A stretch of DNA of 64,000 nucleotides from Patescibacteria group bacterium. Lineage in GTDB: Bacteria > Patescibacteriota > Microgenomatia > UBA10105 > UBA927. A program made the position numbers and the translations under genes. Every line of letters starts with the position of its first letter. Positions within the stretch are counted from its first letter, which is position 1. Of the stretch, positions 21,504-30,422 are shown piece by piece. Where the stretch lies: contig DATKGN010000008.1 in NCBI GenBank assembly GCA_035510735.1, positions 12,466 through 76,465 of the forward strand. The letters run 5' to 3'. The notes under the pieces were generated by a model. The model ran no database searches. It had not been told where the DNA came from and worked only from the letters and a program-made list of their open reading frames with translations.

Positions 21504-21521
21504 TTGACGGCCTTATTATAT

Positions 21522-24500
21522 ATGAGTTTAACTATATACATGGATAGTCTAATGTTGTCTAATATTGCGGATTATCAAGCTTTTATCGAGCGGACCTTCC
21601 TCGGATTTTTACAGGAACAGGGGGCTTCAGAAATAACCCAGAAGAATTACCGCACAGATATCCACAATTTTTTTAATTGGATTACTACAACAAGCCAAAA
21701 TAATCCTTTGCCTCTTGAAAATTCTCAACAAAAAGGTCTTCTCAAACAAATATCCCTGGAAATGCTTGAAAACTATAAACGATCCCAGCTCCTCGCACAC
21801 GTACCGGCTAATACCATAAACAGACGATTATCCGCCATAAGAATGTTTTTTAAGTGTGCAATGACTCAGGGATGGATAACTGATGACCCGTCACAATACC
21901 TCAGCAATATTCCAAAAAGTGCCGAGAATAAGCCTTCCCAAAACAACAATGTTCTTCTATTACCGCAGATCGAACACTTTCTCGACGCTCCTCATCCTGC
22001 TGCCGTTATACCTATTCCGATTGTAGCTCCGATTCCAGAAGTGATAGCCGGAGAAAACATATCAACGCCTATTCCTATTCCACCTACTGCTATTGCTCCA
22101 GCCCCAGTCTCAACAGCGGATTCATCAGGACAAGAAACAATTATTATTCCCGCAGGTGTTGCACCAGCCTCATTTAACTCTGGATTCCAACGATTTCTAT
22201 CGCCTCTAGCCCTAGGTATGCTTTTGCTCTTTTCCCTTCTTGGTTCCGCTGCTTTAATATATCAAATAATAGGATTAAAGACTCAAAGTACATCAGGTCC
22301 AAAGGCTGCTCCACTCTCTTCTCTATATAACCCCTTAAACCCTTTGCTTGCAAATCAAATTCTCAATGCATCGCAATCTGCACAAATATTAGGAGCTACA
22401 GGCTCGACAGGGTCGACTGGTGACGCCGGAATACTTGGCCCAACAGGAGGCACTGGTTCACTCGGTCCGACAGGGAACGTCGGTGATTCTGGCTCTATAG
22501 GACCGACAGGTGAAACCGGATTTCGTGGTGATTTCGGACCAACAGGCCCAACAGGAACTCAGGGTATTACAGGACCGACCGGCTCAATTGGTAGCACCGG
22601 TTCACAAGGCTCTTCAGGTCCTACCGGTCAACAAGGAGATACCGGTCCTATAGGAGAAACAGGAACTACGGGAGCCACGGGAACCGCAGGCGCCTCGGGA
22701 CCTACGGGGGCATCTGGGGCAACTGGGTCATCTGGCGCAACAGGATTTATTGGGCCAACCGGAACAACTGGCGCAACAGGATTTATTGGGCCAACCGGTG
22801 GAACAGGTATCACGGGACCAACGGGACCATCAGGTACGACCGGTGCAACCGGATCTATAGGTCCTACGGGTACGACCGGTGCAACCGGATCTATAGGTCC
22901 TACCGGATATACGGGAGGAACCGGAGTGAACGGTCCGACCGGAACAACGGGAATGGCTGGTCCCACTGGAATGACTGGTTCCACGGGAATATTTGGCCCA
23001 ACAGGATCAACTGGCACAACCGGCATAACAGGCCCTACAGGCGGAACCGGTACCATTGGGCCCACAGGAACTACAGGTACAACAGGAAGTACGGGTGCAT
23101 TTGGTCCTACGGGTTCTACGGGAACCACAGGAGGAATCGGATCAACCGGCGCTACTGGAGAAACCGGCCCGACAGGAGCAACAGGTTTCATAGGCCCAAC
23201 AGGCACGACTGGCACTACGGGATTTATCGGTCCAACAGGATCCACAGGAACAACAGGTGGTACCGGAACGTTTGGCCCTACGGGTACAACAGGAACTACC
23301 GGCTTTGTCGGTCCAACCGGAGCTACCGGAGGAACCGGAATAGCGGGTGCGGGAGGCGCTGGCCCAACTGGTGGAACGGGAACGACCGGTGGCACCGGAT
23401 CTTTCGGTGCTAGCGGCCCGACTGGTGGAACAGGTACAACCGGTTATTTCGGTCCCACAGGCTCAAGCGGAAGTTCGGGAAGCACTGGAGCAACAGGCGG
23501 AATTGGTCCGACCGGTGGAACAGGAACGACAGGTTCAACGGGAAGCACAGGAGTAGCCGGACCAACAGGAGGGACGGGTGGAACAGGTACAACAGGAACC
23601 GTAGGAATAACCGGTCCGACCGGGACAACAGGTTCAACGGGATCTACGGGAAATGCAGGTCCGACAGGCGCAACAGGGTCAACGGGATCGACAGGAACTA
23701 CAGGATTAGCCGGTCCAACCGGAACAACCGGTTCAACAGGAACTACAGGATTAGCCGGACCGACCGGATCAACAGGATCAACCGGATCAACAGGATCAAC
23801 AGGCGCAATAGGTATCAATGGTCCAACAGGAGCAACAGGTACAACCGGATCAACTGGAGGAACAGGGGTTATGGGTCCAACCGGAAGAACAGGTTCAACG
23901 GGCGCTACCGGAGCGATAGGAATAACCGGACCGACCGGGACAACAGGAGGAACAGGGGTTACGGGTCCAACAGGATACACAGGAGCTACCGGAGGCACTG
24001 GAGCATCGGGAGGATCCGGACCAACAGGATCAACAGGGTCAACAGGAACAACGGGAGCAACCGGTGTCGCGGGTCAAACCGGGCCCACCGGAGCAACCGG
24101 TACTACAGGTTCTACCGGCGGAACCGGTGTCACGGGACCAACCGGATCAACAGGAGGAACAGGAGCAACCGGTTCAACCGGATCAACAGGTACAACCGGA
24201 TCCGCTGGTCCAACAGGCTTTACCGGAGCAACAGGCACCACAGGGGTTCAGGGTGCAACCGGCGGCACCGGCCCAACCGGTTTTACAGGCGCAACCGGAT
24301 CGACCGGAACTACAGGCGGCACCGGAGTTACCGGCCCGACGGGAGGAACCGGTACAACAGGATCAACTGGTGGAACGGGTGTGACAGGTCCAACCGGATA
24401 TACGGGATCAACAGGGACAACAGGAGCAAACGGACCAACCGGGGGTACCGGACAAATCGGAGCCAACGGTACTGTACTATTTACCCAGACAAATGGAGAA

Positions 24501-27500: not shown

Positions 27501-30422
27501 TTATCAACCGGTAACGGAATTTCTGGCACATTTAACGGCCTTACATCCGGAAATGGCATGTCGTTATCGGTAAATGGCACCGCTGCTGCAACCGGCCAAA
27601 AACTCCTTTCATTATCATCATCCGGAGCTAATTCAGCTTCCGGTATCACCCGATACGGACTCTACTCAACAACGAGCGGTACGGGTTCAACGTCTACAAA
27701 TTATGCAGGTTACTTCAATGCTTCGGGCGCGACAACTGACATCGGCGGATATTTCACTGCATCGGGAGGAACAAATAATTATGCCGGTATTTTTGATCAG
27801 GGGCTCGTCGGCATCGGGACAACCACCCCCGTATCCGAACTAAACGTTAATCTGAAAGACGCGGTCGTTAACCAAAGTGAAACCGCCGTAACAATTGATA
27901 AAACGTTGAGTAGCGGAACCGCCGCAAGCGGCATCGGCACCGGGCTTCAATTCAGATTACCGGATACGGGCGCAACAATGCAGAACGTTGCAAGTATGGC
28001 AGCGGTATTCTTAAACGCAACCAATAAATCACAACTGGATTTTTACACGCTTTCAGGAAGCACCACGCCCGCACTTAATATGCGGATTACCGGTGACGGT
28101 TACACCGCGGTACATAAGCTTACCGATCTTGAAGACCAAAGCTACTTCCTGGATCCTGCGGGTTCTCTTTCATTAAATGCAAAAGGAGATGCATCAACAT
28201 CCGCGCGCTTCGTTTTAAGCGGCGCCCAGGAGACTCCTGCTATCAACGTGTTAAACAATAACACGCTGAACTTCAACTTTTCACCCGGCGGAAACGGTGC
28301 ATCTGATGCAAACATGGTATCAAAATTCTCCATTGATGCGCTTGGAAATGCGACCCTAAGCGGCAACCTAACGGTTATTGGCTTAGGCGGCACCATGCTC
28401 AACGTCGGCAACGGTGTCGGCAAAATCGACGTCGGTACCGTCGACCCTCCATACACAATAAACGGAGAAAAGTATGCAACGTATCTCAGTGGTATGGTCG
28501 GACAAAAAGAAGAGACAACCGGCTCGGTCATAACAAACACCTATCAACCCGGAGTCGGCTATAAAGCCGAATTAAATTTTGGTACCGTACAGGAGGGATC
28601 TGATCTCTGGCTGTTCGCAAAAGTAACAAATCTTCGGGCCCAATTGAATAGCCTTATTGTCCTTCTCTCCCCTGCTGCTAATACGAAGAGCTGGTATACG
28701 ATAGATCCCAGCACGTATAAACTAACAATTTATACAATAAGGCCCACCGTTGTATCGTACCGATTAACCGCTCCGCGCTTTGACGCAAGCCAGTGGCAAA
28801 ATACACGGACAGGCGGATCAACCGGATTTGTGCTCAATGACGGGCAGGAATTGGCGCTCAACTCAAGTGGTAATATGATCGGTAACACGTCAAATGATCT
28901 CTCTGATGTGGTCATCTCACAAACACAAGCCTCTGACGGAACACTGTCATACCAGGTGAATACGCTTGCCGGCGATATGGTCTCTGAAGTTTCAGCCCTT
29001 TCCCAAGCTGTTATCGGGACGCTGAAAGCAGGTTCCATTACCACACAGGATCTTGTCACAAACACGCTGACTGTCGGCGGCCAATCGCTTCGCGACTACA
29101 TAGTAAACGTCGTCTCAACAAGCGGATTATTAAATGGCAATACGGCAACATCGCAAGGCTCAACCATCCACGATCTTTCTACCGATACGATAAGTCCGCT
29201 TGCTACAAGTTCCGCAGGAATTGCCATTAAATTAAGCCCGGCTCAAACATTCGGTATTTACAATTCGGGCGCTGCCGCTCCTTCGACAACATTTGATGCG
29301 CTTGGCAACGCAACTCTCGCCGGTACACTTACCGCACGGGGAGGTACGTTCGGAGACCTTACCACTAACAAACTGACCGCGACCGGAAATGCTAGCATAA
29401 GCGGCAATCTCGATGTGAGCGGAAACAGCACGATTGCAGGAACACTGTATGCGGATCGGATCATAACCTCGGGAGGTGAACTTTCCCCCGCAACAGGAGC
29501 CGCAACAATCAACAATATTACGAACCTGACCCAGATCATAAATGCAACACCGTCATCGGAAGTTGCATCGGGACCAGATGCATCAGTGAGCGCGCTTCTG
29601 GCTCTCGGAGCTGATGTATCAGCTGATACGACAAATGTGACAATATCAAAAGACATCACGCTCACTCAATCGCTTGCCGTCCTGGGTGACTCAATACTCG
29701 GAAAAACATCAATCGCAGGATCACTTCTTGTAGACGGCATGGTGAGTATTGACGGAGACACGATTGAATCAAACGGCGGGACGCTGTATCTCCAAAAGGA
29801 TCGTCTTGCCAATCTCGACATTATGGGTGGCACAATGGTTCTTGATACCGCTGGCAATGTCGTAATCAACGGAAATCTCGATATTACCGGCGATCTGACG
29901 GTCGGTAATGTGCTGGGAACCAACACGCTCCAGGCAATAAATGACGACCTGACAATTGACTTGACACAGCAGCATCCTTCAACAACATCAGGTGGATTTG
30001 CAAATCTCGTCGTTAAAGGCGCAAACAATCTACCAGTTGTAGTCATTGATGCTTCCGGCAGCGCCATCTTTACCGGCCACCTCTTAGCCAATTCCGGCAC
30101 ATTCGGCTCAGCAAGCGTCTCAGGCACATTGGCCGTCGACAAACTAACCATTCCAATGAAATTAGATAACAGTCTCATGAGCTCTCAGAGTGCTACCGAG
30201 CAAGCAACTATAGGTCAAGGTGTTATACCAGCAGACTTGAGATCAATCACCATTGCAAATACCAGAGTTACTGATGATAGTTTAATCTATATCACCCCAA
30301 TAACTTCAACAAATAATCAGGTACCGTATGTATCGACCAAAATTTCGGGAACTAGCTTCACCGTCGCGATCGATTCCCCGATTTCAAGCCCCGTGGAGTT
30401 CAACTGGTGGATAGTCAATTAG
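21522..30422 (+). CDS. giant membrane-anchored collagen-like fibre protein (N-terminal integrase-SAM-like domain / TM / GXY collagen repeats / LamG domain / beta-rich fibre)
   Basis: Single ORF of ~2,970 aa. aa ~17-135 match the tyrosine-recombinase N-terminal SAM-like core-binding pattern ([17 protein letters not shown]...ENYKRSQLL...[23 protein letters not shown]). Pro-rich linker, then TM helix [27 protein letters not shown]. ~230 Gly-X-Y triplets (GPTGxTGxTG) from ~22395 to 24475. LamG/concanavalin-like block ...[12 protein letters not shown]...WHYVVGVYD...YVYVDGVL... near 26000-26650. First ATG taken at 21522; ORF caller opened at TTG 21504. Confidence 0.8.

Follow-up and report, generated by a model that had tools for sequence, protein, structure and literature searches.

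We analysed a giant gene in a 64,000-nucleotide stretch of DNA, referred to below as the window, from a Patescibacteria group bacterium (contig DATKGN010000008.1). The gene joins a tyrosine-recombinase-type SAM-like domain to a transmembrane (TM) helix, a collagen-like stalk, a propeller-lectin head and a long beta-rich distal fibre. That the gene is real and has this architecture is practically beyond doubt. We propose, with a probability of roughly 45%, that the product is a type-II membrane-anchored and probably homotrimeric fibre with DNA-binding cytoplasmic tails, which would act as a tether or as a ToxR-like regulator. A surface fibre with a binding role is the likely part of this proposal; DNA binding by the tail has a little under even odds, and transcriptional control by the tail is rather doubtful.

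The gene is a single uninterrupted open reading frame (ORF; 21504..30422, +) of 2972 amino acids (aa) counted from a TTG codon, in agreement with a preceding sequence-only reading of this DNA, which had described an unbroken frame of ~2,970 aa. The true start is most likely the ATG at 21540 (21540..21542, +), giving a protein of about 2960 aa that begins MDSLMLSN..., because the aligned orthologous loci keep ATG or GTG at this position (9 of 9) and the 36 nt on its 5' side are not conserved as protein. Homologue N-termini likewise read MDSLMLSN... or MESLMLSN.... Starts at TTG 21504 or ATG 21522 were rejected, since in the nine-locus alignment the codons of this segment change non-synonymously or are lost (ATA in L007 and L008) while third codon positions are invariant.

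A pattern scan covering one genome per GTDB species returned 11 loci that encode the N-terminal region at 40-81% identity; one of them (L006) lies on a 1.22 Mb contig named Candidatus Gottesmanbacteria. Two metagenome contigs (L001 and L002) have the same junction adjoining the leucyl-tRNA synthetase (LeuRS) gene, and the gene order MBL-ComEC-ComEA-LeuRS is kept in most loci with enough flanking DNA, followed by pilin genes where the contig reaches that far. The orthologue in L009 is intact (2520 aa, 232 triplets, end FNWWIVN), as is that in L011 (2322 aa, 76 triplets, end FHWFIVN); the remaining ones end at contig ends, N runs or frameshifts within the collagen repeat. Ten of these loci (L003-L005 and L007-L013) are titled 'uncultured Gammaproteobacteria bacterium', at odds with the Gottesmanbacteria title of L006 and with gene content and homologue names of Candidate Phyla Radiation (CPR) type; the title is probably placeholder taxonomy.

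Because the same junction recurs in independent assemblies and loci, the fusion of tail, linker, TM helix and collagen is a conserved gene and not a chimera. It is extremely improbable that we are dealing with an assembly chimera, or with a pseudogene that fuses a truncated recombinase gene to a collagen gene. Short-read assemblies do break in the repeat, with N runs or frameshifts in the collagen part of L003, L005 and L008 and an early frameshift in L006, but the junction is found in assemblies from many samples, the linker and TM helix are conserved, and full-length intact orthologues exist. The DNA of the collagen repeat is degenerate (8 exact repeated 30-mers, every one from 36-bp offsets), and assembly collapse is therefore unlikely; the triplet count is that of the assembly as it stands. 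The search for homologous fusions suggested by the sequence-only reading thus yielded an orthologous locus in 11 species-level genomes and many metagenome contigs. The CPR origin then supposed is borne out by the source names of the homologues, and so is the statement that the fusion has no described family: literature searches aimed at the architecture gave no account of cytoplasmic tails, of a CPR collagen stalk or of the split-gene arrangement described below.

The predicted cytoplasmic tail (21543..21899, +) has the fold of a tyrosine-recombinase core-binding domain. Three Pfam models that the sequence-only reading had put forward for hidden Markov model (HMM) searches all match the protein: Phage_int_SAM_1, and, as detailed below, Collagen and Laminin_G_3. 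Phage_int_SAM_1 (PF02899) matches aa 32-123 with 31.9 bits in the whole protein and 38.1 bits in the N-terminus alone (gathering cutoff 22.3). The alignment to the NCBIfam XerD/XerC models is confined to positions ~3-117 of 290 (~40 bits against a cutoff of ~330), and the Pfam search found no match to the catalytic recombinase domain PF00589 in the ORF; after aa 135 come the linker, the TM helix and the collagen. We modelled the N-terminal 287 residues with AlphaFold2 (AF2), using six homologues. Structure prediction of this part had also been suggested, and it produced a confident helical bundle, with predicted local distance difference test (pLDDT) values >90 across most of residues 10-125, then a disordered linker and a TM helix.

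With the tail model as query, the top 50 Foldseek matches in the PDB are all N-domains of tyrosine recombinases (XerA, XerD, Tn1549 Int, Cre and the core-binding domain of lambda Int). Probabilities are mostly 0.9-1.0, and the E-values only reach 0.02-0.45 because the domain is small. Nineteen residues of the tail are invariant. Among them are those of KNY..D and TINRRLS, by which XerC/D-type core-binding domains are recognised (in the window protein KNYRxD..F..W and TINRRLSxxRMFF). To our knowledge, this is the first context in which a stand-alone core-binding domain has been recruited away from recombination. A P. gingivalis 'RaiA' chain also matched the SAM-like profile; the paper describing it is silent on that N-terminal region, and the match was not used.

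The tail does not appear to be a decayed recombinase. An exhaustive HMMER search with the tail profile against 1.84 billion cluster representatives returned 3029 clusters at E<=1e-3, of which 886 reach E<=1e-10. The 150 top-scoring clusters are proteins of ~150-190 aa, tandem proteins of ~290 aa, or giants of 1000-3620 aa, and PF00589 was absent from 10 of 10 mid-size members scanned with Pfam; we base the statement on this family size, these length classes and this absence. The IMG annotation calls two of the giants, P0223 (3620 aa) and P0139 (2590 aa), 'site-specific recombinase XerD' (also 'XerD/cytoskeletal protein CcmA'), which is a propagating misannotation due to the N-terminal domain. 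The present assignment corrects databases that label surface proteins of 2,600-3,600 aa in this way.

An indication of what the tail does comes from relatives in which it has been replaced. A search with the ectodomain (aa 1000-2972) gave 82 proteins, mostly of 1.1-3.4 kaa, with source names from Gottesman-, Roizman-, Shapiro-, Collier-, Pace-, Torok- and Falkowbacteria, WWE3 and WS6. Of all parts of the protein, the propeller-LamG module recurs in the largest number of them (~60 of the 82); it aligns to 12 homologues at 34-48% identity and is 33-48% identical to that of giants from Gottesman-, Roizman- and Collierbacteria, WWE3 and WS6, with further relatives in other CPR groups, so that the family by all appearances spans several CPR lineages. 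Three classes of N-terminus are found among the 82: a signal peptide of ordinary type or a short anchor; a SAM-like domain, single or in duplicate, with a TM helix after it (18 of 82 with the family HMM, the domain always lying within the first 300 residues); and one or two MerR/HTH_17 (helix-turn-helix, HTH) domains and a TM helix (P0024, P0025 and P0045). P0232 and P0234 are also MerR/HTH_17-tailed giants; a Pro-rich linker is present in P0025 and P0045, and collagen in P0025, P0232 and P0234.

The gene for P0025 shares the 1.22 Mb Gottesmanbacteria contig with the orthologue in L006, which makes P0025 a paralogue whose tail has been swapped. With this tail as query, more HTH-collagen fragments were recovered, one of which NCBI calls 'MerR family DNA-binding transcriptional regulator, partial'. 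Our main argument is that either of two unrelated folds, with DNA binding in common, is found at this one position, so that selection seems to maintain nucleic-acid binding at the tail. The tail-swapped paralogues strengthen the proposal, made already in the sequence-only reading, of an attachment fibre with a signalling or tethering role for its cytoplasmic domain.

The tail also occurs divided over two adjacent genes. Proteins of ~170 aa all end about eight residues past a second '..TVKNY..D...FL.W' motif, which leaves them with helices A-B of another SAM-like domain behind the first. In L002 (10001-11602), L013 (95-1400) and L014 (1141-2312), helices C-D ('..T..R..S.L..F..W'), the half that the short protein lacks, open the next ORF, which continues with a Pro-rich linker and a TM helix, after which collagen follows in L002 and L013. 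A scan of metagenome contigs gave 80 loci, with 28 fused forms, 6 ending with the contig before the TM helix and 46 short ORFs. In 31 of these 46, the last partial SAM-like domain of the short ORF covers HMM positions ~10-50, ending at ~48-56, and the domain in the downstream partner starts at ~48-75 (mostly ~58-70) and runs through ~119. The downstream ORF lies -7 to +1468 nt from the short one; a TM helix comes 53-163 aa further on, with up to >3000 aa beyond it. The split always falls at one place, the variable loop that joins helix B to helix C and has low confidence in the AF2 model.

Stop-codon read-through was considered for the split loci and rejected, as the second ORF keeps the frame at part of the loci and at others is out of frame or lies 100-1468 nt downstream. 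The simplest reading is that the soluble ~170-aa protein docks on the fibre tail and completes its half-domain, giving a product that would equal the tandem fused forms. We regard these pairs as a natural case of one domain divided over neighbouring genes, always at one loop, from which non-covalent docking would be expected. In three split loci a gene of the TIGR02436 'four helix bundle protein' family lies between the halves (L055 2439-3101, L072 6253-6876 and L089 10600-11337), two of the three with a 4helix_suffix domain; this family is better known from 23S rRNA intervening sequences.

The tail is connected to the membrane by a Pro/Ile/Ala-rich linker of ~90 aa (aa ~141-232; 21924..22199, +), which contains 18% Pro and is predicted to be disordered (pLDDT 33-40); the linkers of homologues are equally Pro-rich. 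It leads into aa ~234-259 (22203..22280, +), the sole strong hydrophobic segment of the protein (Kyte-Doolittle score, KD19, 2.17), which is a helix in the AF2 model and conserved in all homologues. We infer an N-in/C-out topology with this helix as signal anchor, because the protein lacks an N-terminal signal peptide and its C-terminal domains are of extracellular type.

The collagen-like region (22392..24476, +; Pfam Collagen, PF01391, 9e-68) comprises 233 Gly-X-Y triplets with Gly at each third position; a single register shift divides them into two runs, aa 297-620 and aa 617-991. Thr occupies the Y position in 172 of the 233 triplets (74%), and the region has 9 charged residues and 47 Pro per 695 residues. 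If triple-helical, the stalk would be ~199 nm long. From the Gly-X-Y repeats we infer a homotrimer, from which three tails per fibre would follow. Orthologue stalks range from 76 to 232 triplets, and stalk length thus seems to evolve freely. Thr-rich G-X-T collagen of BclA is O-glycosylated, and the rhamnose pathway glycosylates BclA; because of this precedent and the glycan genes nearby, the stalk may be glycosylated too. A surface-glycan cluster a few kb downstream (36945-47558) could glycosylate the Thr-rich collagen. A bacterial G-X-Thr collagen of ~200 nm is also of interest for collagen biophysics.

Beyond the stalk lies a head in which a beta-propeller (24975..26090, +; conserved motif YDTSKDxDGGxW...SWYNE) precedes a LamG/concanavalin-A-like lectin domain and a long helix (26139..26618, +). 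Laminin_G_3 (PF13385) matches aa ~1546-1705 (3.3e-19, 70 bits). The propeller, the jelly-roll lectin domain and the helix are seen in an AF2 model of residues 1090-1760, built with 12 homologous segments (predicted template modelling score, pTM, 0.66; mean pLDDT 69). The structures closest to the lectin head in Foldseek are carbohydrate-binding modules. Foldseek also returned the propeller-plus-lectin arrangement of trans-sialidases and GH43 enzymes, at very high root-mean-square deviation, and no catalytic conclusion is drawn from it. Sequence searches with the ectodomain against solved structures and phage families (PHROG) gave no matches.

The last ~1250 aa are rich in Ser, Thr, Gly and Asn and have periodic beta-type repeats. 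They include a variable beta-repeat region with periodic xLTTGxG units (26781..28250, +), assigned by composition and covered by few homologues, and a conserved C-terminal fibre region (28251..30419, +; 17-34 of 82 homologues) with a K1-lyase_C-like domain (30243-30377) and the tail motif FNWWIVN. The region after LamG has no Pfam, PDB or PHROG match apart from this K1-lyase_C-like end (PF24146), which scores 24.4 bits in the window protein (cutoff 27) and 34.1 bits in the short relative P0221. Peptidase_S74 (PF13884) has no Pfam match in the window protein. Two miniature relatives, P0127 (463 aa) and P0221 (531 aa), have little beyond the SAM-like N-terminus and the K1-lyase_C-like end, which suggests, because they consist of little else, that the two ends are the conserved core of the family. 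The order of parts given in the sequence-only reading stands throughout, from a SAM-like domain with no recombinase domain after it, through a Pro-rich linker, a single signal-anchor helix and about 230 triplets of BclA-like G-X-T type, to a LamG domain and a Ser/Thr/Asn/Gly-rich beta-fibre region; the propeller before LamG is an addition to that picture.

The DNA upstream of the gene is conserved as well. The spacer to the LeuRS gene measures 880 nt and is AT-rich (36% GC in the 2-kb segment that holds it). When the nine intergenic regions are aligned, near-invariant blocks are found in the gene-proximal ~600 nt (20940..21539, +), though the proteins are 40-60% identical. They include TAGCA..CTGCTAAT and TAGCGCT..CTGCCAA, two copies of a 14-bp palindrome with the consensus TCAATAATTATTGA (TCAATGGTTATTGA at 21150-21163 and TCAATATTTATTGC at 21349-21362), the blocks ACTATAAG at 21211-21218 and ATGCGGTAATTCGTGAAAT at 21403-21421, and TTGAC-N4-TTATTATATAT at 21504-21523, which abuts the start-codon region. 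These motifs are unique in the window. They recur at fixed distances upstream of the SAM-like gene, about -130 in 19 and about -36 in 16 of 97 fetched loci, in fused and split forms alike; loci with these blocks include L001, L003-L009, L011, L018 and L022.

A structured RNA or riboswitch, such as a LeuRS T-box, was rejected for this region: there was no Rfam match at gathering cutoff or at E<=1, and RNAalifold found no conserved fold in the nine sequences, and the conserved blocks are therefore taken as DNA elements. A clean sigma-70 promoter was likewise discarded, its site count not exceeding that of shuffled sequences, and the TTGAC is ruled out as a standard -35 element, being 4 nt from the TA-rich box. 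The blocks are probably promoter and operator elements, or an unusual promoter, for which they are candidates.

We hypothesize the following arrangement. In a CPR bacterium of Gottesmanbacteria type, a vertically conserved chromosomal gene would encode an N-in/C-out surface fibre, whose Gly-X-Thr stalk of ~200 nm would hold the propeller-lectin module and the long beta-rich distal fibre off the cell, where the lectin head would bind glycans or surfaces of other cells. Inside, each chain would carry a SAM-like domain on a flexible Pro-rich leash of ~90 residues, with an extended reach of roughly 25 nm, and this domain would bind DNA. A trimer would offer three such domains, and twice that number, six, in relatives whose tails are tandem or split and docked; in the split-form relatives the soluble ~170-aa protein would dock by supplying the missing SAM-like half. 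The base of the fibre would thereby be tied to the nucleoid, or the protein would act as a membrane-tethered, ToxR-like regulator, with the palindromes upstream of its own gene as candidate targets. We speculate further, as an idea that we think unlikely to hold in full, that such giant fibres with interchangeable DNA-binding tails (core-binding domains, whether single, in tandem or rebuilt from two genes, or MerR/HTH_17 domains) are a class of CPR contact devices not recognised so far, which would couple binding or pulling at a lectin head up to ~200 nm or more away to the chromosome, either as a nucleoid tether at host contact or as a ToxR/Notch-like switch that autoregulates via the palindromes.

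Several points weigh against the DNA-binding fibre. The isoelectric point of the tail ranges from 5.8 to 9.6 among orthologues and is not markedly basic, and isolated recombinase core-binding domains bind DNA weakly; that the tail binds the upstream palindromes is pure conjecture. The cytoplasmic HTH domain of RodZ binds a protein, MreB, and not DNA. The charges flanking the TM helix leave its orientation undecided, trimerisation is assumed from the collagen repeats, and a Gly-X-Thr stalk with so few Pro and charged residues may need glycosylation for stability. The confidence of the head model is moderate.

The main rival explanation retains the fibre and changes the role of the tail: the SAM-like or HTH domain would be a protein-protein adaptor that docks a cytoskeletal, secretion or pilus/competence component, with the soluble 1.5-domain proteins as its partners. 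The split-gene pairs show the domain in a protein-protein assembly, soluble proteins with SAM-like domains in tandem are plentiful, the charge of the tail is close to neutral, ComEA/ComEC and pilins are conserved neighbours, and RodZ-MreB provides a precedent. We nevertheless consider an adaptor doubtful, given that the folds holding the same position, core-binding-type and MerR/HTH_17, have DNA binding in common, and that the invariant motifs are those of true recombinase core-binding domains. Still less probable is a mainly structural role, as a BclA-like nap or spacer or as an S-layer-associated filament giving the envelope its shape, and not as a specific device for attachment or sensing; the tail would then only stabilise or position the anchor. 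The G-X-T composition, the glycosyltransferase, RmlD and DegT genes nearby and the variable stalk length would all suit it; yet the module closest to carbohydrate-binding modules is the best-conserved part across the CPR giants, and elaborate, conserved and interchangeable cytoplasmic domains are hard to square with a passive coat.

A phage or prophage origin, with the protein as a tail fibre or receptor-binding protein and the SAM-like part as an integrase remnant, is very improbable. The N-terminus does match the integrase family phrog_1 in the PHROG search, and phage fibres can contain collagen repeats and end in a K1-lyase_C-like or Peptidase_S74 domain, the latter (PF13884) being present also in some members of the present family. 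However, the 64-kb window contains no phage genes, the synteny with LeuRS, ComEA/EC and pilins extends across 11 species, the ectodomain has no PHROG match, and a TM anchor follows the N-domain; moreover, the tail is under purifying selection, and no catalytic domain was found in the family members checked. We retain the membrane-anchored fibre with DNA-binding tails as our working model.

The gene lies in a cellular neighbourhood; the window holds no tRNA or Rfam match. Upstream and divergent are the genes for arginyl-tRNA synthetase (ArgRS), argF, argG and argH, an unknown protein of 445 aa, an MBL-fold protein, ComEC, ComEA and LeuRS. ComEC is encoded by two ORFs (15162-17119, -), one for a Competence-domain protein (318 aa) and one for an MBL-fold protein (303 aa), and this two-ORF form is kept in most related loci with enough flanking DNA. 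The argF, argG and argH-like lyase genes (9247-13268, -) specify arginine biosynthesis, which is unusual for the reduced metabolism of CPR bacteria and fits the relatively large genomes of this lineage. Downstream, three consecutive type IV pilin-like genes (30551-32327, -) point towards the 3' end of the giant gene, a position kept in L006, L008 and L013; they have the N_methyl motif, and one of them matches ComP_DUS weakly. Farther downstream lie a tetratricopeptide repeat (TPR) protein and the genes of the surface-glycan cluster: a methyltransferase, two GT2 glycosyltransferases, RmlD, a DegT aminotransferase and several ORFs of ~540-590 aa without Pfam match.

How ultrasmall episymbiotic CPR bacteria recognize a host and respond to it is an open question with almost no molecular candidates. 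The family described here is a concrete, widespread and testable one: its fibre belongs to the conserved core genome and would have its lectin head outside the cell and a tail of nucleic-acid-binding type inside.

Parts of the protein resemble several known systems. With XerC and XerD it shares the core-binding domain (PF02899), both in fold and in the motifs ..T...Y..D...F and S/TINRRLSxLRxFF. In contrast to these recombinases, the domain precedes a linker, a TM helix and an ectodomain of ~2,700 aa, and is often in tandem or split across two genes; the catalytic domain of tyrosine recombinases (PF00589, R-K-H-R-H/W-Y) is absent from the window protein, which for this reason is no tyrosine recombinase. 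The beta-rich, trimeric-fibre-like C-terminal region resembles that of phage tail fibres and tailspikes, from which the window protein differs in being membrane-anchored and in a cellular context. Unlike the window protein, some relatives carry PF13884, and the short ones have K1-lyase_C above threshold.

A long G-X-Y region, presumably a trimeric stalk bearing a globular C-terminal part, is common to the window protein, BclA, Scl1, Scl2 and Lcl, and the G-X-Thr richness is shared with BclA in particular. BclA and Scl proteins have tens of triplets. The window protein is anchored at its N-terminus by a TM helix, with a predicted cytoplasmic domain, and without LPXTG or exosporium targeting. 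Its NCBIfam scores (SclB 248.7 against 325, Lcl 243.3 against 500 and SclA 198.7 against 400) stay below the cutoffs, with matches limited to the G-X-Y repeats. A C-terminal LPXTG sortase signal was not found, the sole LPxTG being internal (aa 2152) and the end ...EFNWWIVN lacking a hydrophobic tail. With scores below cutoff, no such signal and the anchor at the opposite end, the protein is not an Scl/Lcl adhesin. Nor is it BclA, since the C1q-like head is absent: neither the C1q/TNF-like C-terminal domain nor the exosporium-targeting motif of BclA gave a Pfam or NCBIfam match.

By its propeller-LamG module, the window protein belongs to a loosely recognised group of CPR LamG surface proteins, many members of which have an ordinary signal peptide instead of the tail. 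The concanavalin-like lectins of CPR bacteria have been mentioned as putative adhesins (PMC12911398; PMC13059738), in accounts that do not include SAM-like or HTH tails, a collagen stalk or the split-gene form.

RodZ likewise has a DNA-binding-type fold (HTH) on the cytoplasmic side of a bitopic membrane protein, with a small outer domain, and we take this likeness as a caution only. The window protein would work as an adhesin on a collagen stalk, but its topology is that of ToxR, CadC and TcpP, in which a flexible linker joins a DNA-binding-type domain at the N-terminus to a single TM helix and an outer domain; for the window protein the N-in orientation is predicted. Compared with these regulators, the cytoplasmic fold is of core-binding type (MerR/HTH_17 in the paralogues) and not an OmpR-type winged helix, and the small outer sensor is replaced by a giant collagen fibre.

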